Source: Candidatus Kapaibacterium sp. (GTDB lineage: Bacteria > Bacteroidota > Ignavibacteria > Kapaibacteriales > UBA2268). From it: a stretch of 64,000 nucleotides of DNA. Below, in pieces: positions 2,515 to 19,661 of the stretch. A program made the position numbers and the translations under genes. How positions within the stretch are numbered: the stretch's first letter is position 1; each line of letters starts with the position of its first letter. The notes below the pieces were generated by a model. That model saw only the letters and a list, made by a program, of their open reading frames with translations, was not told the DNA's origin and did no database searches. The stretch is from assembly GCA_963664875.1 (NCBI GenBank), contig OY761611.1, forward strand, positions 1,376,001 through 1,440,000, written 5' to 3'.

Positions 2515-2664
2515 ATGAGAGCTATATCTAAAAAGATGATATCATCAGTGCAAGATGTGGATGCTGTTGATATATTTCTGCATTTAACAAATCCTAATAA
2601 CAAATGGATTTTCAATTCTTTACCCAATCTTTTAGTACAGAGTAGGAGGCAGCATGGAAAATAA
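2515..2664 (+). CDS. Small ORF (49 aa) overlapping the primase start
   Basis: AAGGAGG RBS at 2503-2509, ATG 2515, TAA 2662-2664. Confidence 0.5.
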   Translation: MRAISKKMISSVQDVDAVDIFLHLTNPNNKWIFNSLPNLLVQSRRQHGK

Positions 2665-3601
2665 ATCTTTCAGTAGTAATAGGACTAGTTGTCCTGAATG
2701 CGGAGCAAAAAGGGCATTTGCAGAATATGATGATGGCTCAGGTGGATATTGTCATTCATGTGGTAAAACTGTTATGTATAACTCGACTAAAAAGCAAGGT
2801 AAGCAAATGAAAAAACAACAAGAGAAGAGTCAATTGTTACAAACTATTACTCTTGAGCAATTTAATGAGTTAAGATCATGTGATGATTCAAATTTTAACG
2901 AGTATTTTGGTGAGCTATTTGGTGATGCTTTTAACAAACATTGTAATGATAATTATTTTTTAAGAGCTGATGATTATGGTGCAACAATCTTTACTTTTAT
3001 AGATTCTCAGGGATTTATTAGAAATTTAAAAAGCATGGCATACAAACAAGATGGTCATAGAGATAAGGTGGGATTTGTTCTAAAAATCAAGGAGAAAGAG
3101 ACTACTATACCTGTATTTTATGGATATCGATATGCAAAAAAAGGAAAATACGATATGATTAAATCCACTTCTGTGAAGAAACATTATTCACAGTGCCTGT
3201 TTGGTGAATACTACCTCAATTCACACAACTACATGATTGTAGGAGATCGAACCTATAAGTATGATGACAAGACCCCAGTTATATTATTAGAATCAGAAAA
3301 ATCTGTCTTAATATCTTCATTTCATTATCCATCTGTCATCTTCCTTGCAACAGGTGGAACGAATGGGTTAACAGAAGAAAAAGCGGAAATATTGAAAGAT
3401 AGAATTGTTTATATCATGTTTGACAACGAAGAAAAAGCTCAACTGAGAGCTGAAAAGGCAAAGATTGTTTTGACAGGAATTGCAAAGTCGGTTGATATAA
3501 TTGATATTTTCAAAAATTACAAGGTTGAAGAAGGTTATGATTTAGCTGATATTTTAGAACAACAAGCAATTTTAAGAGGAGAACAGAAAGATGACAAATA
3601 A
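2654..3601 (+). CDS. Primase-like protein (zinc ribbon + TOPRIM, DUF6371-like)
   Basis: CPECG...YCHSCG zinc finger; LFGE, ESEKS, LATGG, FDN and GYDLAD TOPRIM-type motifs; AGGAGG RBS. Confidence 0.8.
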   Translation: MENKSFSSNRTSCPECGAKRAFAEYDDGSGGYCHSCGKTVMYNSTKKQGKQMKKQQEKSQLLQTITLEQFNELRSCDDSNFNEYFGELFGDAFNKHCNDNYFLRADDYGATIFTFIDSQGFIRNLKSMAYKQDGHRDKVGFVLKIKEKETTIPVFYGYRYAKKGKYDMIKSTSVKKHYSQCLFGEYYLNSHNYMIVGDRTYKYDDKTPVILLESEKSVLISSFHYPSVIFLATGGTNGLTEEKAEILKDRIVYIMFDNEEKAQLRAEKAKIVLTGIAKSVDIIDIFKNYKVEEGYDLADILEQQAILRGEQKDDK

Positions 3602-4652
3602 TTTAAAACCGATAAGAGAATTCAATCTTATTCAAGAGTTGAATAACTATAATCACAAAAAGATTAAACAAAACACAATGAATTTTCGATTGGAACAAGC
3701 TGCTAATCAACCTCAGATGGAAGAATTATTTGGTTCTTATTTACAACGTGGAGAAATTTCAATAATCGCAGGTAACACAGGAGATGGTAAATCCACTTTA
3801 GCAGTTCAAATTGCTGACAGAATCACAAGGCAAAAAGGAATATGGAATGAAGTGAATACGCAAAAATATCCAATAATATACTATGATTTTGAGATGTCAG
3901 ACCAATCATTGCTAAAAAGATATCAATCTTATACTTTCGAATCTAACTTTTATTGTCCTGACGTTAGTGAAATTATTAAGAATTCAAATGGCGTATTTTC
4001 TATAGATACAATCAAGAATGATATCAACACTTTTGATGCTAATATAATCTTTATCGATAATATTACTGCAATGTCGCAAAAATCAACAATTGATCAAGAC
4101 TCTGCAAATAAACTAATGCGTGGATTAAAAACTCTACAAAGTACGTACAATACCACTATTTGTGTGTTAGCTCATGTGCCTAAAATTCCAAGTAATGTTC
4201 CTTTGCATATTAACCATGTCGCAGGGAGTAAAAATATTGTAAATTTTGCAGATAGTGTGCATATAATCGGACAGAGCAATCAATTACCTAATAGACGTTA
4301 TCTGAAGCAAGTTAAAAATCGTAATTCAGAAATGGAATCACAGGTAATGGTTATAGATTTAATCTGCGAAGATTATCTTCATTTTGATTTTATCAAGATG
4401 GATGATGAACGTAATCATATCGATGTTGATACGATTATGGAAGATAATAAGAAAAATAAACATATTGACATTGCTAATGAATTGATTGGTACTGATGCAA
4501 TAAAATACACTGATTTTGTAGATAATTACGCAAAAAAATACAATAAATCGATTGAAACGGGTAAGAAAGCAATTCAATATTTGAAGTTACACAATATAAT
4601 ACAGCAGAACGAATCGAAAGAATGGGAAGTCAATCCTGACTATCTAATTTAG
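3591..4652 (+). CDS. AAA ATPase / RecA-DnaB-type (RepA-like) helicase
   Basis: Walker A AGNTGDGKST, YYDFE, Walker B IIFIDN, LAHVPK, AGSK; overlaps primase end. Confidence 0.85.
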   Translation: MTNNLKPIREFNLIQELNNYNHKKIKQNTMNFRLEQAANQPQMEELFGSYLQRGEISIIAGNTGDGKSTLAVQIADRITRQKGIWNEVNTQKYPIIYYDFEMSDQSLLKRYQSYTFESNFYCPDVSEIIKNSNGVFSIDTIKNDINTFDANIIFIDNITAMSQKSTIDQDSANKLMRGLKTLQSTYNTTICVLAHVPKIPSNVPLHINHVAGSKNIVNFADSVHIIGQSNQLPNRRYLKQVKNRNSEMESQVMVIDLICEDYLHFDFIKMDDERNHIDVDTIMEDNKKNKHIDIANELIGTDAIKYTDFVDNYAKKYNKSIETGKKAIQYLKLHNIIQQNESKEWEVNPDYLI

Positions 4653-5864: not shown

Positions 5865-6593
5865 ATGAGAATAGTAGTAGAGTTAGAATCTTCTAATCAT
5901 ATTCTATTACCACATTCTATCAATAGTGTTATACAGTCTTTTTTATATAATGTAGTAAAAGGTGATTCTGAATTTGATGAGATGCACAAAAGTATCAGTT
6001 ATAAAAATTTTACGTTTTCAACGATTCGAGAACGATTCCGAAAAGTAGAAGGTGGAAGACTATATGGAAATTCTATATCTTTTGTCTTCTCAACCAACCA
6101 GCAAACATTAATAAATACATTACTGAACAGTATAATGTTCGCTTCAAATTTAGATTTAGCAGGCAATTCAGTAAGATTCAAATCTGTCTCACCAATTCAG
6201 AAGAAATCCTTTACTACAACCGAGAAAATGAAGACATTAAGTCCAATAACTGTCTACGATGATATTGTGAATTCCGAAGGTAAAAAGTTTAGGAGCTATT
6301 GTTTAGATGTGCATTCTGAAAGATTCACAAGATTACTTCGCAACAATCTGATAAGAAAAGCAAGTAAACTTTATAATTGGGATTTATCGGATTCTGAATT
6401 TGAGATTGAATGCTTATCAAACCCAAAAATTGTCTCTGCGACTTATAAGCATAAGAATAATGTGATTAAAGGCATCGATGCAATATTTAAGCTTACTGGT
6501 GATGAAAGATTGATTCAAGTTGCTTATGAAGTTGGCTTAGGCAGTAAAAATGCTCAGGGTTGGGGTTGTATAGAATTTGCAGGAGAAAAATAA
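5865..6593 (+). CDS. cas6: CRISPR endoribonuclease Cas6
   Basis: C-terminal G-loop GLGSKNAQGWG, TLSPI motif, FTFS; first gene of cas operon. Confidence 0.95.
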   Translation: MRIVVELESSNHILLPHSINSVIQSFLYNVVKGDSEFDEMHKSISYKNFTFSTIRERFRKVEGGRLYGNSISFVFSTNQQTLINTLLNSIMFASNLDLAGNSVRFKSVSPIQKKSFTTTEKMKTLSPITVYDDIVNSEGKKFRSYCLDVHSERFTRLLRNNLIRKASKLYNWDLSDSEFEIECLSNPKIVSATYKHKNNVIKGIDAIFKLTGDERLIQVAYEVGLGSKNAQGWGCIEFAGEK

Positions 6594-8467
6594 TGTTTTT
6601 AAATGCTTTATACGAAATTGGTGAATATCATAAAAAAAACATACTTAACAAAGGTGGTCTTCCTGAGCTCACTTTGAAAGAGGTACAATATCTTCATAAA
6701 ACAGGTACATATCAAAAGGTTGTAATTATGAATATACAAAGTTCCAATAGCACAGTATCCTTTTCAACCGAGGAATTAGAATCGACCGGAGATCACTCTC
6801 TACACTATTTATACAAATATCGTAATGGCTCCCAAGCAGGTAACGAATTTTCTTTTACTAACAAAATAAATATACAAAAAGAAAAGGATAAGAATAAAGA
6901 GAAAGCTGAAATCGATTGGAACAAATTCTTCAACTACTATAAAGCTAACAAAAATTCTTGGATTACTTGGTTAGAAGCTTGCATAGCTGAAGAATTTTAT
7001 CAAACAACTCAAAATATATTAAGAGCAATCATTCAAAATATTGAGAATATCAAATCTTATATTGAGACCTTATTTACGAATGATGATACTTTTAAAAAAG
7101 GCTGCATTTTTACGGTAAAATATAACGGTAAATATTTAAACGAAATCAAAGAGTGCGTTGAATGTTTTGACTATTGTGTGCAAAAACACAATAAGTCAGG
7201 AAACACAGAGCCAAATGTTTGCTGCTCTTTTTGCGGAAGTAACCAAAATGTCAGATATGGTATTCCAGAAGCATTCAAATTCGCAACCATAGATAAAGAA
7301 GGATTCGCAACTGACTTCAATGTTGACACAAATAGGGATTATCCAGTTTGTATCGAATGTCGTACAATCTTGACTTCAGGAAGACAATTTATTGATGATA
7401 ATTTGTCTTATTATTTCCACGGCTTAAAATATAAGGTTGTTCCACACTCTGTTTTTAAATCAGAAGTGTTGCTTGACAATATGTTATATAACTTAAAAGA
7501 AGCCAAAAATCCAAATTTATCTCAAAATCACTCTAATTTTATGTCTGATCCTGATGGTATCATTGAAGAAGCTTCTGAACTAAACAATAGTGTATTGTTA
7601 AATTTAGTGTTTTTATCACAGAAAGGCGTCGGTGGTGAACAAATTGATCTACTTATGCAAGATGTACTTCCAACTCGCTTAGCTGCGATAATAAAAGTAA
7701 AACATGATTTAGAAAATATGTACCCCTATAAAACGAAAGATGGTGAAATTAAACATATGCTTTTCAATATGGGCACAATCTTCAATTTTTACCAACATAA
7801 GAAAAGTAAAAATGCACCATTTGATAAATCATTTTTCGAACTTGTGGAAGCTATATTTAAAGGTGGTAAACTTAATAAAGATTTGATTGTCTCTAAGTTC
7901 ATGGATAAAATTCGGGAAGATGTTTATGAACCAGACAAAAAGCACCCCCATAACTACACTAAAGATTCCATAAGAATAATGCAATTCCTATCAAAATTAG
8001 ATATAGTAGATTTCAAATATAAAGGTAAACCTATGAAAGACAATATTTTCAAAGAATATTTTGAGCAAATAGGCATAGTCGATTCTTCATACTTAGCGGG
8101 CGTAATGCTTATCGGAGCCTTAGTAACCAAAGTTCGTATAGTACAGAAAGAAAATCTGGACAATGATCCCTTCAAGAAAAATCTAAAAGGATACAATTTA
8201 AACCGTGATGAGATTATTTTGCTTGCTAATAAAGTAAAAGCGAAGTTAGAAGAGTATAATGCTTTTAAAGGAACTGAAAATATAATTTTTGGAACTGCTT
8301 TTAAGCTTATGATGGATGCAACTCCAGTATCAAATGCCATGTCAAACTGGTATCTGATTGGTGGCATGAGTTTAGAATATGAAATTATGGGCATAGCAAT
8401 CGAATACCTAAAATCGCAAAAACCAAACTCTCAAGCAGAAGAACAAGAAAGCAATGAATCCAATTAA
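6593..8467 (+). CDS. cas8b: Type I-B large subunit Cas8b (Csh1/TM1802-like)
   Basis: ATG overlaps cas6 stop (TAATG); CSFCG...FKFATIDKEGF...YPVCIEC zinc motif; position between cas6 and cas7. Confidence 0.88.
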   Translation: MFLNALYEIGEYHKKNILNKGGLPELTLKEVQYLHKTGTYQKVVIMNIQSSNSTVSFSTEELESTGDHSLHYLYKYRNGSQAGNEFSFTNKINIQKEKDKNKEKAEIDWNKFFNYYKANKNSWITWLEACIAEEFYQTTQNILRAIIQNIENIKSYIETLFTNDDTFKKGCIFTVKYNGKYLNEIKECVECFDYCVQKHNKSGNTEPNVCCSFCGSNQNVRYGIPEAFKFATIDKEGFATDFNVDTNRDYPVCIECRTILTSGRQFIDDNLSYYFHGLKYKVVPHSVFKSEVLLDNMLYNLKEAKNPNLSQNHSNFMSDPDGIIEEASELNNSVLLNLVFLSQKGVGGEQIDLLMQDVLPTRLAAIIKVKHDLENMYPYKTKDGEIKHMLFNMGTIFNFYQHKKSKNAPFDKSFFELVEAIFKGGKLNKDLIVSKFMDKIREDVYEPDKKHPHNYTKDSIRIMQFLSKLDIVDFKYKGKPMKDNIFKEYFEQIGIVDSSYLAGVMLIGALVTKVRIVQKENLDNDPFKKNLKGYNLNRDEIILLANKVKAKLEEYNAFKGTENIIFGTAFKLMMDATPVSNAMSNWYLIGGMSLEYEIMGIAIEYLKSQKPNSQAEEQESNESN

Positions 8468-12494: not shown

Positions 12495-12620
12495 TCGTCT
12501 GGCTCGTATAATACAAAAATCACTGAACCTCGACGACTTATTTATTGGAGTTTGAGATACTTTTCTAATGCTACGAACGATACGATTTATTAAAATAGCT
12601 TGTTCTTTGAAAATTTGAGG
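12495..12620 (+). promoter_or_regulatory. CRISPR leader containing boxA-like GTTCTTTGAAAA (12602-12613)
   Basis: Non-coding gap between cas3 and first repeat; degenerate repeats are at the opposite end; same 12-mer occurs in both rrn leaders. Confidence 0.8.
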
Positions 12621-13244
12621 ATAGAAATACCTGCTATAAGCAGGGATGATTTGTCAGATTGTTCGCCTCTGATGCTGTTAGCTGTATAGAAATACCTGCT
12701 ATAAGCAGGGATGATGGTATATCACGAGTTGGTACACCACCATCGTAGGTATAGAAATACCTGCTATAAGCAGGGATGATGATGCAGTTGATATTGATAT
12801 TGAACCGACAGAGCAAATAGAAATACCTGCTATAAGCAGGGATGATATAGTGGTTTATAACAATGGTGAAAAAGTTACTTTTGAATAGAAATACCTGCTA
12901 TAAGCAGGGATGATTCAATTCTTTCTGGTCTATCTAATCCGAATAATTCTATAGAAATACCTGCTATAAGCAGGGATGATATGTTCTTTATGTACTTCAT
13001 TCCACTTGGAAAGTTCATAGAAATACCTGCTATAAGCAGGGATGATGGATTAAACAAAGCTCTAAAATCGCAAGGTCGTTCAATAGAAATACCTGCTATA
13101 AGCAGGGATGATTTTTCTAATTCTCCTATATAAAAAAAGCGGTCTGTATAGAAATACCTGCTATAAGCAGGGATGATTTAAGTAAGCATACATACTAAGG
13201 CAACCTGCTTCTTGATAGAAATACCTGCTATAAGCAGGGATGAT
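12621..13244 (+). CRISPR. Array segment 1: chimeric repeat ATAGAAATACCTGCTATAAGCAGGGATGAT, 10 copies (10th is the IS junction), 9 spacers
   Basis: Repeats start at 12621, 12686, 12751, 12817, 12885, 12951, 13017, 13083, 13148, 13215; spacers 35-38 nt. Confidence 0.97.
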
Positions 13245-14426
13245 TTGTTCTTTGTAAATATCATATAATATAGTAAATTATAGAAAGCCAAACACAAACT
13301 TTTCTAATCTGGGGGGATTTATGGAAAAGCAAACGTTAGTAAATTATCTTGATAAGTTGACAGATAAGCGTCGCAGGGAAGGCACACGCCATAATCAATC
13401 ATTTGTATTATTGCTGGTTTTGATGGCGACTATGAGCGGACAATATGGCTATCGTGGCATAGAAAGATTTATAAAGAAGAATGCCGAAGACATACTGAAA
13501 TATTTAAAGCCTCATAAAGATAGATTACCAACTTACGCAACAATTTTTAGAGTGGTAAATAATATAGATTTTGATGAATTTGCACAGATTTTTAAAGAGT
13601 GGTCAAAAGTTTATGCAAAGCCTCAAAGCGGTGAAATAATCAGTATAGATGGCAAAGCTTTGAAAGGCACATTAGTAGAATACAATTCGAAATACCAGAA
13701 CTTTATAAGCATTGTTTCTGCACATTCTCAATCAAGTAAAATGTCACTAAGTATAAGCAAATATGAGAATAAAAAATCAAGCGAGATAAGCGTAGTTGAA
13801 GAAATGATTAGAGATTTAGAACTGACTGGCGTAGTCTTTACAATGGATGCTTTACACTGTCAAAAAAACTCTAAGAACAATTGTTAGTACTAACAACAAC
13901 TATATTATTTGCGTAAAAAAGAATCAAGGTCGTTTGTACAAAGAACTGGAGAGTTTGAGTTCGAGCTGGTCAACAAAGATCGATTATTATAAAACCGAAG
14001 AAACTAATAGAGACAGACGAGAAACTCGTAAAGTATATGTATATTCATTAAACGATAAAATTAAGAACGAGTGGTCCGGATCACAGCAATTAGTAAAGGT
14101 ACAAAGGATTAGAAAAACAAAACAAATGCAGGAAGTTCATGTACATTATTATTTGAGCAGTCAAGAAAAACCAGCAAAGTATTATATGCAGAGCATACGA
14201 GGACATTGGGGCATTGAAAACCAGCTACATTGGGTAAAGGATGTGGTAATGAAAGAAGATGCTTGGAAAGTGAGAAATACACAAGCAGCTTCAGTCATGA
14301 GTATAATAAAGTCAATTTGTATCAATATTTTTAGGTCAAAGAAGCGTATTGATTGTACCAACTTTTTCTATGAGACTGCCGACAATGTAGAACTATTGGT
14401 GACTTTGTTAGAATGAATCAACCCTG
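13235..14426 (+). mobile_element. ISAs1-family IS, copy 1 (1192 bp)
   Basis: Ends CAGGGATGATTTGTTCT / AGAATGAATCAACCCTG (14/17 inverted match); 10-bp duplication CTGCTATAAG at 13225-13234 and 14427-14436. Confidence 0.95.
13321..14416 (+). CDS. ISAs1 DDE transposase split in two frames (13321-13887, 13847-14416)
   Basis: IDGKALKG, KSSEI, TMDALHCQK, VKKNQ, IRGHWGIENQLHWVKDVVMKED; frame break at A7 run 13862-13868. Confidence 0.9.
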
Positions 14427-14965
14427 CTGCTATAAGGGGTTTAAACTAAAAGGCAATAAGCTGTATTTGACGTTAGGACTTGATAGAAATACCTGCTATA
14501 AGGGGTTTAAACTTTGGTAATGATGCTAAGAGCTGCAGCACATCACTAATAGAAATACCTGCTATAAGGGGTTTAAACGAAGGCAGCCATGATGACATGG
14601 TAGATGCGACAACAATAGAAATACCTGCTATAAGGGGTTTAAACTTATTTCACCTCTGTGATAAAATTTTCAGCACTAAGATAGAAATACCTGCTATAAG
14701 GGGTTTAAACAATTCTAATGAATATTCTTTAGCTGTTTCCCGTGCAAATAGAAATACCTGCTATAAGGGGTTTAAACGAAATTAAAGAAAAAAAACTATT
14801 AGATTTTGCTGAATAGAAATACCTGCTATAAGGGGTTTAAACTAGACTTCAACTGAGACATAAACTGAGAAATATTAAATAGAAATACCTGCTATAAGGG
14901 GTTTAAACCATTCATTAAAAACTTACAATAAAAAAGCATGGAAAAATAGAAATACCTGCTATAAG
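14427..14965 (+). CRISPR. Array segment 2: original repeat ATAGAAATACCTGCTATAAGGGGTTTAAAC, 7 full repeats plus two IS-split halves, 8 spacers
   Basis: Full repeats at 14483, 14549, 14615, 14681, 14748, 14813, 14879. Confidence 0.97.
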
Positions 14966-16157
14966 CAGGGATGATTTGTTCTTTGTAAATATCATATAAT
15001 ATAGTAAATTATAGAAAGCCAAACACAAACTTTTCTAATCTGGGGGGATTTATGGAAAAGCAAACGTTAGTAAATTATCTTGATAAGTTGACAGATAAGC
15101 GTCGCAGGGAAGGCACACGCCATAATCAATCATTTGTATTATTGCTGGTTTTGATGGCGACTATGAGCGGACAATATGGCTATCGTGGCATAGAAAGATT
15201 TATAAAGAAGAATGCCGAAGACATACTGAAATATTTAAAGCCTCATAAAGATAGATTACCAACTTACGCAACAATTTTTAGAGTGGTAAATAATATAGAT
15301 TTTGATGAATTTGCACAGATTTTTAAAGAGTGGTCAAAAGTTTATGCAAAGCCTCAAAGCGGTGAAATAATCAGTATAGATGGCAAAGCTTTGAAAGGCA
15401 CATTAGTAGAATACAATTCGAAATACCAGAACTTTATAAGCATTGTTTCTGCACATTCTCAATCAAGTAAAATGTCACTAAGTATAAGCAAATATGAGAA
15501 TAAAAAATCAAGCGAGATAAGCGTAGTTGAAGAAATGATTAGAGATTTAGAACTGACTGGCGTAGTCTTTACAATGGATGCTTTACACTGTCAAAAAAAC
15601 TCTAAGAACAATTGTTAGTACTAACAACAACTATATTATTTGCGTAAAAAAGAATCAAGGTCGTTTGTACAAAGAACTGGAGAGTTTGAGTTCGAGCTGG
15701 TCAACAAAGATCGATTATTATAAAACCGAAGAAACTAATAGAGACAGACGAGAAACTCGTAAAGTATATGTATATTCATTAAACGATAAAATTAAGAACG
15801 AGTGGTCCGGATCACAGCAATTAGTAAAGGTACAAAGGATTAGAAAAACAAAACAAATGCAGGAAGTTCATGTACATTATTATTTGAGCAGTCAAGAAAA
15901 ACCAGCAAAGTATTATATGCAGAGCATACGAGGACATTGGGGCATTGAAAACCAGCTACATTGGGTAAAGGATGTGGTAATGAAAGAAGATGCTTGGAAA
16001 GTGAGAAATACACAAGCAGCTTCAGTCATGAGTATAATAAAGTCAATTTGTATCAATATTTTTAGGTCAAAGAAGCGTATTGATTGTACCAACTTTTTCT
16101 ATGAGACTGCCGACAATGTAGAACTATTGGTGACTTTGTTAGAATGAATCAACCCTG
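14966..16157 (+). mobile_element. ISAs1-family IS, copy 2 (1192 bp, apparently identical to copy 1)
   Basis: Same ends, same length, identical translated ORFs; duplication CTGCTATAAG at 14956-14965 and 16158-16167. Confidence 0.95.
15052..16147 (+). CDS. ISAs1 transposase split in two frames (15052-15618, 15578-16147)
   Basis: Same proteins as copy 1; A7 run at 15593-15599. Confidence 0.9.
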
Positions 16158-18490
16158 CTGCTATAAGGGGTTTAAACTTGAGATATTATTGTAAAATTGT
16201 GATTATTTGATTTCATAGAAATACCTGCTATAAGGGGTTTAAACGAGTGCAAAGTGTTCCATTCTTGTCGAGCCATACGGAATAGAAATACCTGCTATAA
16301 GGGGTTTAAACCTAATATATATTTTCATTATTCACTCCTAAATTGATAATAGAAATACCTGCTATAAGGGGTTTAAACACTACTGTGTTGAAAGATATGT
16401 TAAATGCCATATCAGATAGAAATACCTGCTATAAGGGGTTTAAACATATATTCAGTAAGAAGTTTTAAACAAGACCCATTAATAGAAATACCTGCTATAA
16501 GGGGTTTAAACTTTATAATGTCGTAATCTTTGTTAGCCTGAATGTTAATAGAAATACCTGCTATAAGGGGTTTAAACTCTGCTTCCTTATGTGATTTGCG
16601 GGTAGTACTACTATAGAAATACCTGCTATAAGGGGTTTAAACGCAAAGTTGTGCATTTTAGAAGCGACTGGCAACTCATAGAAATACCTGCTATAAGGGG
16701 TTTAAACTCGTTTTGATGCCGTTTACAACTGTGCCGATGCCTGCATAGAAATACCTGCTATAAGGGGTTTAAACGCAGCTGCAACCGGGTCATCGAGCGA
16801 TACATTGAATATAGAAATACCTGCTATAAGGGGTTTAAACATGCTTTTTGATATATTATTTGGCATTTGCAATTGAATAGAAATACCTGCTATAAGGGGT
16901 TTAAACAAGTTTGGAGTTTTCAATTTCATGTCTTCGAACAAATAGAAATACCTGCTATAAGGGGTTTAAACAAATTGATTTGAACGGCGTTGCATTCAGC
17001 ACGTCAAATAGAAATACCTGCTATAAGGGGTTTAAACACGTTTGCGGCTCTAATGCCTGCTTTTAAAAAGCTCAATAGAAATACCTGCTATAAGGGGTTT
17101 AAACGTAGATTATACTTCGGAGGAATCAGTAGAATTGATAATAGAAATACCTGCTATAAGGGGTTTAAACTTAACGAATTGGTCATTAACATAACCGATT
17201 GTTTGCGGATAGAAATACCTGCTATAAGGGGTTTAAACTGTTGAAGAGGAATGGAAGCATATTACTTGTCCTCGATAGAAATACCTGCTATAAGGGGTTT
17301 AAACGAATCAATCTCAATAAACAATATATTACTTTTAGTAATAGAAATACCTGCTATAAGGGGTTTAAACTGTTGAAGAGGAATGGAAGCATATTACTTG
17401 TCCTCGATAGAAATACCTGCTATAAGGGGTTTAAACAAAGCTGTGCCGGGGTTCGCTTAAATCTCTGATAAATAGAAATACCTGCTATAAGGGGTTTAAA
17501 CATCACTAATGAAGTCAGATTGAAGGTAGCTCGTTCGATAGAAATACCTGCTATAAGGGGTTTAAACTTGGCTGAACCGCTACGAGGCAATGGTATTGAT
17601 TTAATAGAAATACCTGCTATAAGGGGTTTAAACATGAATGCCGAGGCAGTAGAGGGGCGTGCAAGGCGTATAGAAATACCTGCTATAAGGGGTTTAAACG
17701 ACGTTCTGATATTAAGTCTTTGTCCAATCTGTACGAATAGAAATACCTGCTATAAGGGGTTTAAACAATATTGTTTTGTTAAAAGCTATCTCGAAAACTA
17801 TAATAGAAATACCTGCTATAAGGGGTTTAAACTCGTTTTTACCTGTTTTTTCTTTTGTTCCATTTTGATAGAAATACCTGCTATAAGGGGTTTAAACGTA
17901 ACTCCGTGCCAATCTCACTAAATATATTTGCATATAGAAATACCTGCTATAAGGGGTTTAAACTCAAAACTCTTAATCATATCAATACCGACTTCACTTA
18001 TAGAAATACCTGCTATAAGGGGTTTAAACCAATATTTCGAGCAGATACGAAACGATGCCGAGTTTATAGAAATACCTGCTATAAGGGGTTTAAACTTGTC
18101 AGCTATTGACAAAATGCTCAATGAAGCAGAATAGAAATACCTGCTATAAGGGGTTTAAACAATTCTGAAACATATTTTGCAATTTTTTTTAGTTTTATAG
18201 AAATACCTGCTATAAGGGGTTTAAACTTGACTACATTGTTTTCTTTACATATTCTAAATACCTATAGAAATACCTGCTATAAGTGGTTTAAACATCGAAA
18301 CTTACGGCAATGTAGCGACTGCTCTGAATATAGAAATACCTGCTATAAGGGGTTTAAACACAGTTAAAAGGTTTACTTGTCATGTGATAATAGAATAGAA
18401 ATACCTGCTATAAGGGGTTTAAATTGTGCTGACTGTATCGAATTTACGGTAGAAAATGAAATAGAAATACCTGCTATAAGGAGTTTAATT
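16158..18490 (+). CRISPR. Array segment 3: original repeat, 35 full repeats plus IS-split half, 35 spacers
   Basis: Repeats from 16215 to 18461; trailer-end variants at 18264 (G>T), 18395 (ends AAAT), 18461 (GAGTTTAATT) give + orientation. Confidence 0.97.
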
Positions 18491-18707: not shown

Positions 18708-19661
18708 ATGATAATATTTAGTCAACTAAAAACGGATTTCATCATGTCAAAAAATACAATTCCATCAAATTCAGCAATTGATTTCCAACATCTCTTCAAC
18801 GAGTTGGTGTATCATTACTTCCCTACTCCAATGATTAATTATCATCTTGAGCGATTTGAAACAAAAGATGATAAGATCCTTTATTTAAAAGAAATGCAAA
18901 TTCGTTTTTATCATCTAACACTAATAAAATGTGACTATTGCGAACAGACAAAAGATATACCATTACTTCATACAGAAGCACGACCGAATTTCCATGATTA
19001 TCGTATAAGTATCAGTAATGTTAAAGTTGATGATAACTTCAAGCACTACATCTACGGACCACTCAAATTCAATGATGTAGAAGCTACAAAAGTATTTAAC
19101 AGATTTGATATACTTCTAAACAGAACACTCATGCTGTTCAAACCTGATCCGACGTTTTTAACGAACTGGGAAGAAGTAAAGGGACATCTGCAAAATATTA
19201 GTTCTGTCAAGAACAAAAAGAAGTATTTGCTGCAATTAAACTCAAACTTCAACAACCACCCTCATTATTGGGGCACAAGAGAAGAACAGGAATCTTTCAA
19301 GAAATTGCTTTCTGCAAAATATCAAAAACTTAAGCAGATAGTATTTGAAGCAAGTGCAGAACCAACATTCAAAAAACAAGAAAAAGTTGAATCCCAAAAT
19401 TTGGAAAAGCAGAGAGCTGAACAAACAACAAGTTCTGACAGAGCAAAACAAAAAACATCTTTTGCAGAGAACAATTCCAATGACTTCATAAAAATAGAGG
19501 AAGTAACGCAAATACTAAAAATTTGCAAACCTACAGTTTACAGCTATCGCAATAAAGGTTTGATACAGTCATACAAAATGGGTAGAAATGTCTATTATAA
19601 AAGAAGTGAAATCTTTGAAGCACTAAATAATGGCAAAGTAAAGTATGGTAAAACTAAGTAA
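18708..19661 (+). CDS. Protein with C-terminal excisionase/MerR-like HTH
   Basis: FIKIEEVTQILKICKPTVYSYRNKGLIQSYKMGRNVYYKRSEI. Confidence 0.8.
   Translation: MIIFSQLKTDFIMSKNTIPSNSAIDFQHLFNELVYHYFPTPMINYHLERFETKDDKILYLKEMQIRFYHLTLIKCDYCEQTKDIPLLHTEARPNFHDYRISISNVKVDDNFKHYIYGPLKFNDVEATKVFNRFDILLNRTLMLFKPDPTFLTNWEEVKGHLQNISSVKNKKKYLLQLNSNFNNHPHYWGTREEQESFKKLLSAKYQKLKQIVFEASAEPTFKKQEKVESQNLEKQRAEQTTSSDRAKQKTSFAENNSNDFIKIEEVTQILKICKPTVYSYRNKGLIQSYKMGRNVYYKRSEIFEALNNGKVKYGKTK

Follow-up and report, generated by a model that had tools for sequence, protein, structure and literature searches.

An insertion-sequence-derived hybrid CRISPR repeat, apparently copied nine times, in an interference-only type I-B locus

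The window analysed here is a stretch of 64,000 nucleotides (nt) from Candidatus Kapaibacterium sp. (GenBank assembly GCA_963664875.1, contig OY761611.1, positions 1,376,001 to 1,440,000). It carries five interference genes, cas6-cas8b-cas7-cas5b-cas3, followed by the leader of a CRISPR array that is interrupted by two copies of one insertion sequence (IS). Next to the leader, the repeats are hybrids of native repeat and IS sequence (Table 1). We consider it probable that the IS made this hybrid, that nine spacer integrations by a machinery acting in trans copied it and that the CRISPR RNAs (crRNAs) of the nine spacers are impaired. Separate estimates for the second and third of these parts are given where they are discussed. 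Positions are those of the window unless marked C1, which denotes the organism's own genome; the window array is called array A.

Table 1. Coordinates of array A, its cas genes and insertion sequences, and of the second CRISPR locus
Feature	Position	Strand	Details
cas6, 242 aa	5865..6593	+	TIGR01877 cas_cas6, 1.3e-36; PF01881
cas8b, 635 aa, TM1802/Csh1 type	6560..8467	+	TIGR02556, 5.9e-54; TIGR02591, 4.3e-26; PF09484, 2.5e-80
cas7, Csh2 type, 317 aa	8486..9439	+	TIGR02590, 1.9e-55, over cut-off
cas5b, 235 aa	9449..10156	+	TIGR02592, 1.2e-36, over cut-off
cas3, HD and helicase, 778 aa	10158..12494	+	TIGR01596, 2e-23; TIGR01587, 1.2e-27; abuts leader
CRISPR leader, 126 nt	12495..12620	+	Collinear with 126-nt leader of congener G094
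First hybrid repeat	12621..12650	+	Hairpin 12630-12644; last 8 nt GGGATGAT at 12643-12650
Segment 1	12621..13244	+	10 identical hybrid repeats, 9 spacers (35, 35, 36, 38, 36, 36, 36, 35, 37 nt)
IS1, ISAs1 family, 1192 bp	13235..14426	+	NF033564 transpos_ISAs1; CAGGG...CCCTG ends
IS1 transposase, two overlapping open reading frames	13321-13887, 13847-14416	+	NF033564, 1.7e-35 and 3.6e-41
Right-hand duplication after IS1	14427..14446	+	CTGCTATAAG plus native repeat nt 21-30, GGGTTTAAAC
Segment 2	14447..14945	+	8 spacers, 7 full native repeats
Hybrid repeat 18, at IS2 junction	14946..14975	+	Internal, single copy
IS2	14966..16157	+	Repeat position and orientation identical to IS1
Right-hand duplication after IS2	16158..16177	+	Duplication plus repeat 3' part
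Segment 3	16178..18490	+	35 spacers, native repeats; repeats 50, 52 and 53 degenerate
Array-A spacers recurring in array B	18161-18196, 18227-18263		C1:2169571-2169606, 2163632-2163667
Locus B	C1:2149157-2156903 (L002 6157-13903)		cas6, unassigned open reading frame, cas3, unassigned open reading frame, weak Cas7-like open reading frame, cas4, cas1b, cas2
Array B	C1:2157126-2176349 (L002 14126 onward, L003)		270 repeats, repeat CATCTAATCGCACCACTGTAGTATTGAAAT; after locus B leader

Hybrid repeats beside the leader

The cas8b product places the locus in type I-B, scoring 183.5 bits with TIGR02556 (cut-off 156.95) and 271 bits with PF09484. The other interference genes are present too, in a single operon beside the array: TIGR02590, TIGR02592, TIGR01877 and TIGR01596 all match over their cut-offs, and TIGR01587 reaches 97 bits (cut-off 102).

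Array A is the only CRISPR array in the window (12621-18490, + strand) and holds 52 spacers. Its 20-nt repeat core, ATAGAAATACCTGCTATAAG, occurs in 53 exact copies, all on the + strand, against a chance expectation of 0. The native 30-mer ATAGAAATACCTGCTATAAGGGGTTTAAAC accounts for 39 exact copies genome-wide, with three degenerate copies at the far end of the array. The hybrid 30-mer ATAGAAATACCTGCTATAAGCAGGGATGAT has 11 copies genome-wide, namely repeats 1-10 and repeat 18, and by whole-genome count neither 30-mer occurs outside array A. In the hybrid, nt 1-20 are those of the native type I-B repeat and nt 21-30 are CAGGGATGAT, which replaces 8 of the 10 bases in the distal third.

All ten repeats from the leader to IS1 are hybrid, the tenth being the repeat/IS1 junction itself, and nine unique spacers have a hybrid repeat on either side. 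The nine newest spacers (35-38 nt) thus do stand in the hybrid context, as the original prediction, made from the window's sequence alone, had held. All repeats beyond IS1 are native except the one at the IS2 junction; mosaic repeats are absent. In contigs of three samples, drawn from two studies, the leader-hybrid junction and several hybrid/spacer/hybrid units recur with 0 differences; although one of these samples may have yielded the assembly, the hybrid array is thus real DNA and not the artefact of one assembly.

The leader lies at the left end, because the degenerate repeats (18264-18490) mark the right end as the old (trailer) end and because the left flank is homologous to the leader of the congener G094. 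The last 22 nt of the two leaders, TTGTTCTTTGAAAATTTG[A/G]GG, are nearly identical. A leader at the right-hand end was considered and ruled out on the same two grounds.

Some further features of the array were observed. Spacers 34 and 36 are identical (17239-17274 and 17371-17406) with one spacer between them, either a duplicated spacer or a local repeat-spacer duplication. The right IS end together with the duplication (14417-14446 and 16148-16177) reads ATCAACCCTGCTGCTATAAGGGGTTTAAAC, a near-repeat whose loop is 3 nt longer. The spacer 3' of each IS keeps the native tag and the CCT/AGG mini-stem, and lacks the first 10 repeat nt upstream; from this layout, normal 5' processing of the spacers directly after each IS is doubtful as well.

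Insertion of the IS and duplication of the hybrid

The original prediction had derived the CAGG of the hybrid repeat from an IS, and CAGGGATGAT is indeed the start of a 1192-bp element with seven copies in the genome. The first transposase frame of IS1 matches the ISAs1 DDE transposase model NF033564 at 122.7 bits over model positions 1-151, the second at 141.4 bits over positions 148-314 (cut-off 70). Its ends, CAGGGATGATTTGTTC and CAGGGTTGATTCATTC, are inverted repeats at 13 of 16 terminal bases. IS2 shows 0 differences from IS1 over the 1191 bases compared, and both are 100% identical over 1192 by blastn; across the genome, identity to IS1 is 100% for six copies and 99.6% for the seventh.

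Both array copies are flanked by a direct 10-bp duplication, CTGCTATAAG, which sets the insertion point between repeat positions 20 and 21. The 20 nt that follow IS1 are the 3' two thirds of the interrupted repeat. Direct 10-bp duplications flank four of the seven copies (one with 1 mismatch), and the other three have inverted flanks. Two of those three sit in a larger inverted duplication, 7 kb apart. The transposase gene is split at a run of seven A (13862-13868; 15593-15599), with the second frame in +1. Six of the seven copies are sequence-identical across this run. The element has clearly been active recently, so the gene need not be dead, and production of the full-length transposase may rely on slippage within the run.

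Five of the seven copies occupy CCTCAAGAGG / CCTGAATGGG-type sites flanked by C's and G's. A 14-bp palindrome, CCCCTC[AA/TT]GAGGGG, stands unoccupied at 16 genome sites (for example C1:1593, 2056692, 2354615, 2356741 and 2358861), far above chance. The IS prefers palindromes of the CC(C)CT...AGGGG type. The unoccupied palindrome itself looks like a dispersed repeat element to which the IS homes. The native repeat contains ACCTGCTATAAGGGGT, which resembles the target palindrome, and because of this resemblance the IS end CAGG pairs with the CCTG of the repeat. The hairpin of the hybrid repeat is thus a by-product of target choice.

In its simplest reading, the sequence shows the following course of events. 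An ISAs1-family element of 1192 bp entered the repeat that was then leader-proximal, between positions 20 and 21, duplicating 10 bp. The 30 bp adjoining the leader then consisted of 20 repeat nt followed by the initial 10 nt of the IS. Spacer integration persisted at the leader-repeat junction, and in each of nine integrations a second-strand cut exactly 30 bp downstream copied the hybrid 30-mer. Both the CCUGCU-AUA-AGCAGG hairpin and the altered 3' end, whose last 8 nt are GGGAUGAU, arose as by-products, as the IS end CAGG happens to complement the CCUG of the repeat.

Several features of the array bear on the length of the copied unit. Ten identical 30-bp units run from the leader on, despite the 8 replaced distal bases. 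On the leader side the boundary of the hybrid repeats is fixed, whereas base 31, the first after each of them, is variable (T, G, G, A, T, A, G, T, T); each copying thus took exactly 30 bp. IS2 serves as an internal control: it made a hybrid at the same position of an internal repeat, and that hybrid was never copied, which shows that duplication needs the leader. The native AAGGG at positions 18-22 became AAGCA in the hybrid, and the G-run moved by 3 bp, from 20-23 to 23-25. Since the copied length nevertheless stayed at 30, the ruler should be anchored either in the leader or within nt 1-20. A candidate anchor is the retained CTATAAG (nt 14-20), a block conserved in register in the repeat of a more distant type I-B locus, that of G097.

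A similar ruler is known from engineered repeat mutants of the type I-B system of Haloarcula hispanica, which also has a 30-bp repeat and duplicates from the leader-repeat junction to a fixed distance. In the sections of that report available, mutating repeat nt 21-25, 26-30 or 23-30 keeps the 30-bp duplication with adaptation detectable; termination of duplication is sequence-independent; and the ruler is anchored on GTGGG at 18-22, so that shifting GTGGG changes the copied length (Wang et al., 2016; PMC4872114). The present case differs in being natural, transposon-made and in a bacterium, in having been propagated nine times and kept, and in having its integrase genes elsewhere. It differs also in that the 3-bp shift of the G-run left the length unchanged, whereas the shift of GTGGG in H. 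hispanica is described as altering it.

As an alternative to spacer acquisition, the 10 bp of IS could have spread among the repeats by recombination or gene conversion, or the hybrids could be an assembly artefact. Concerted evolution of tandem repeats occurs in general, and nothing specific to this array favours it. Conversion would have had to copy 10 bp of the IS nine times without the rest of it, and the boundary between hybrid repeats up to IS1 and native repeats beyond it is perfect, with no mosaics; an artefact is at odds with the identical contigs described above. We regard this alternative as extremely unlikely. IS insertion followed by nine copyings is shown by the sequence of the array. 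The best-supported message of the locus is a natural demonstration of a second cut blind to distal sequence, with adaptation going on after the repeat had been rewritten.

A motif shared by leader and IS was also seen. The 14-mer TTGTTCTTTG[A/T]AAA lies in the leader at 12600-12613, 21 nt before repeat 1, and in the IS at 13245-13258, directly after the hybrid repeat. It is found only in leader A and the seven IS copies. Its 10-mer TTGTTCTTTG occurs 30 times in the genome against about 15 expected (a hand estimate from base composition). The sharing is probably coincidental, possibly a common promoter-like element.

Probable spacer integration by a distant adaptation module

Locus A has no adaptation genes of its own: window open reading frames and profile searches place no cas4, cas1 or cas2 on either side of the array, and the leader follows cas3 directly, so this is not a complete locus. 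The only Cas1 match in the whole genome is at C1:2155714, 780 kb away, beside a second array. There, in locus B, a full-length Cas1b is accompanied by Cas4 and Cas2. The integrase that served array A is likely to be this Cas4-Cas1-Cas2, acting in trans. Together with the sequence-independent, distance-set second cut, adaptation in trans is the best-supported point that the original prediction had missed.

Repeats are 30 bp long in arrays A and B alike. Array B also holds near-copies of two old array-A spacers (35/36 and 34/36 identical), which begin at the same 5' end and run in the same orientation; one of the pair extends 1 nt further at its 3' end. The two arrays appear, from these near-matches, to have sampled the same protospacers from slightly different invaders. 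Shared picks with the same boundary are expected if one machinery that selects by protospacer adjacent motif feeds both arrays. Both leaders contain GTTCTTTGA[AC]AA, and both have TGAAAATT 6-7 nt before the repeat (by eye).

The congener G094 shows the same split. Its array A comes straight after cas3 without adaptation genes, and it has another array whose repeat is identical to that of array B. Its A repeat differs from the window repeat at 6 of 30 positions, and its Cas3 is 89% identical. G097 has the canonical type I-B order, cas3-cas4-cas1-cas2-leader-array. Its Cas3 is 39% identical to that of the window. Two features of its 30-bp repeat, GATTAGAGCCTACCTATAAGGAATTGAAAC, occur in register in the window repeat: the block CTATAAGG and the TT-AAAC end. 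G097 thus keeps cas4, cas1 and cas2 between cas3 and the leader, whereas the window and G094 lack all three there and have the leader directly next to cas3. Because the more distant G097 retains these genes at that place, locus A has probably lost them within this lineage, to judge from gene order.

Array B was also seen to have its own peculiarities. Its repeats fall into blocks of end variants (...GAAAT 159, ...GAAAA 100, ...GAAAG 10, and a single repeat altered internally). The IS found in array A also interrupts array B, with a copy at C1:2173057 inside a spacer that holds the palindromic target of the IS. In array A of G094 (L018, about 5050-4950 and 5460-5340, minus strand), an aberrant unit has a truncated repeat, ...TGTTTAAAT, that follows an unusual stretch of 50 nt, and the beginning of the adjacent spacer occurs a second time; one spacer there stands twice in tandem.

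Upstream of locus A (2654-4652), two flanking genes encode a DUF6371 protein and an ATPase of AAA_25/DnaB-like type. Past the array (18708-19661) comes an excisionase-like HTH_17 protein, and the array of G094 is likewise followed by a similar HTH protein. The whole interference-only locus may lie in a mobile island.

Expected crRNAs of the nine newest spacers

The original prediction had described a perfect 6-bp hairpin in the hybrid repeat, weak pairing in the native repeat, a changed 3' end and a cut site inside the new stem; folding and alignment bear out all four. The DNA at 12630-12644 reads CCTGCT-ATA-AGCAGG. In the minimum-free-energy fold of the hybrid repeat RNA, CCUGCU-AUA-AGCAGG at repeat positions 10-24 forms at -8.7 kcal/mol (z -3.1; 1 of 200 shuffles as good). 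For the native repeat RNA the fold is at -4.1 kcal/mol with z -0.85, equalled by 40 of 200 shuffles, and its pairing is confined to an interrupted AAAU.CCU/AGG.GUUU. In the last 8 nt, GTTTAAAC gives way to GGGATGAT, with differences at six of the eight positions (-7, -6, -5, -4, -3 and -1). Cas6 usually cuts 8 nt from the repeat end, according to the accessible text of PMC5965381. This canonical cut, between 22 and 23, falls within the new stem, which extends to position 24. In the native fold the cut site likewise lies between paired segments, so its burial in the hybrid is a difference of degree.

On balance we expect, by analogy with studied type I-B systems, that spacers 1-9 yield crRNAs that are poorly produced or poorly loaded. 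A stable stem would bury the cut site of Cas6, and six of the 8 nt of the 5' tag read by Cas5/Cas8 would be wrong. The nine spacers, acquired naively or by priming from older spacers, would then form a largely unreadable memory. The repeat itself leans the same way, if indirectly. Its 3' part, AAGGGGTTTAAA[C/T], is conserved between the window and G094, whereas nt 13-17 differ, and the type I-B locus of G097 has a canonical tag, ATTGAAAC, that aligns with the final 8 nt of the native repeat.

Handle mutants of archaeal type I-B systems, which likewise have an 8-nt repeat-derived 5' tag, allow a comparison. The native tag GUUUAAAC shares six of eight positions with the Haloarcula tag GUUGAAGC, including U-6 and A-3. 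In Haloarcula, U-6G is reported to abolish priming and A-3C nearly to abolish it (Gong et al., 2019; PMC6582329). For Haloferax, the part of the study available reports tolerance of change only at -8 and partly at -1 (Maier et al., 2015; PMC4326828). As far as these sources show, such mutagenesis altered one to three positions; in the hybrid, six are changed at once and a stable hairpin lies upstream.

It is also conceivable, if unlikely, that the hybrid is tolerated. On this alternative, Cas6 would dock on the intact 5' part and cut near the usual distance or at the hairpin base, Cascade would load the product and the spacers would give useful immunity. Repeat nt 1-20 are unchanged, and nine spacers of normal length have been acquired and retained. 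The window Cas6 is closest by sequence to the solved Cas6 chains 5yi6, 3qjp/3qjj and 3pkm; Pyrococcus furiosus Cas6, among these closest solved relatives, binds the first 10 repeat nt on the face opposite its active site, by the account accessible in PMC5965381. Haloarcula priming is also reported to withstand large changes of the crRNA, including loss of the 3' handle (PMC6582329). Set against this, the altered tag positions include -6 and -3, which are critical in Haloarcula in the sections of that study available (PMC6582329), and Haloferax is described as tolerating change only at -8 and partly at -1 (PMC4326828). The repeat 3' part is conserved in two species and resembles the canonical tag, and the cut site lies within a stem of -8.7 kcal/mol. 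Full function as a working repeat of a new kind, cut at the hairpin base or the old distance and with six of eight tag changes accepted, we consider improbable. If true, a transposon end would have rewritten both the structure class of the repeat (unstructured to hairpin) and its 5' tag in one step, and repeat and handle sequences could turn over without loss of immunity.

A third possibility is that the hairpin acts mainly on transcription, as a weak intrinsic terminator before a T-rich spacer or the IS, in which case the pre-crRNA would be attenuated inside segment 1 and ahead of the IS, and segments 2 and 3 would be under-expressed too. A hairpin with a tail is flagged as terminator-like on the + strand at 4 of the 11 hybrid repeats (12630, 13092, 13224 and 14955), and the consensus scan returned 15 sites on both strands against 1.8 expected. 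The scan is a match to consensus that may not fit the rules of a low-GC host, however, and its count is inflated by one repeated sequence. The tails, GATGATTTGT and GATGATTTTT, are poor U-tracts that begin 5-6 nt past the stem. We hold this explanation to be quite improbable.

Spacer targets were sought in phage and in the host. When segment 1 was compared by blastn with 50,697 phage records, the matches, which were to Bacillus phages, were no better than chance (E at least 0.2). IMG/VR scans with parts of spacers 1, 2, 48 and 49 gave 0, 0, 0 and 1 match, the last limited to 20 query bases. Outside the arrays, genome matches of the 52 spacers of array A extend over no more than 14-22 nt, and the same holds for array-B spacers. 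Because no spacer targets the host genome, tolerance of self-targets cannot serve as a test of whether the nine spacers are silent.

Several points count against the explanation we favour, that of an IS-made hybrid copied nine times by a distant integrase and yielding impaired crRNAs. The order of events is read from one array. No IS-free array, no intermediate with fewer hybrid units and none with any other number of them turned up in the genome and metagenome collections or in contigs bearing the stretch; exact scans for the 20-nt core gave one chance match each in the genome and the metagenome contig collections, neither of them CRISPR. The ruler anchor may be either the leader junction or repeat nt 1-20, of which CTATAAG is retained. 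The trans-acting integrase is something we infer, and the repeats of arrays A and B are identical by position at just 12 of 30 nt (by eye). Impairment is argued by analogy with archaeal type I-B systems whose Cas8b is distant. The first 10 nt are intact in the hybrid, so Cas6 binding may persist if the enzyme behaves like its P. furiosus relative. That the nine spacers were kept is compatible with usefulness, and the phage and IMG/VR searches returned no protospacer.

It is already known that IS elements occur in CRISPR-Cas loci, that repeats are duplicated by distance and that type I-B systems depend on the handle. IS transposition that inactivates CRISPR-Cas has been reported (Nat Commun, 2023; PMC10359306), and the two cases are alike in that an IS has inserted into a CRISPR-Cas locus, where it may put immunity out of action. 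As far as its abstract shows, the insertions in that study are into cas genes; here the IS copies are in repeats, the cas open reading frames are intact and adaptation continued. Full-text searches of the literature outside subscription journals found no description of a natural IS-derived hybrid repeat propagated by acquisition. What would be new is a transposon-made hybrid repeat propagated nine times, in an interference-only locus apparently served from afar.

The locus is an interference-only type I-B module, probably supplied by a distant adaptation module whose own array repeat differs greatly. A wild bacterial genome here shows an integrase measuring repeat length by distance and leaving the last third unread, as was earlier shown in engineered arrays. 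Adaptation is here separated from interference, nine spacers having been recorded after the part of the repeat that supplies the crRNA tag was rewritten. Should the nine spacers prove silent, an array can build up immune memory that goes unread, and new immunity can be weakened by an IS that leaves every cas gene untouched. If instead they work, Cas6 and Cascade tolerate far more change in the handle than mutagenesis suggests.

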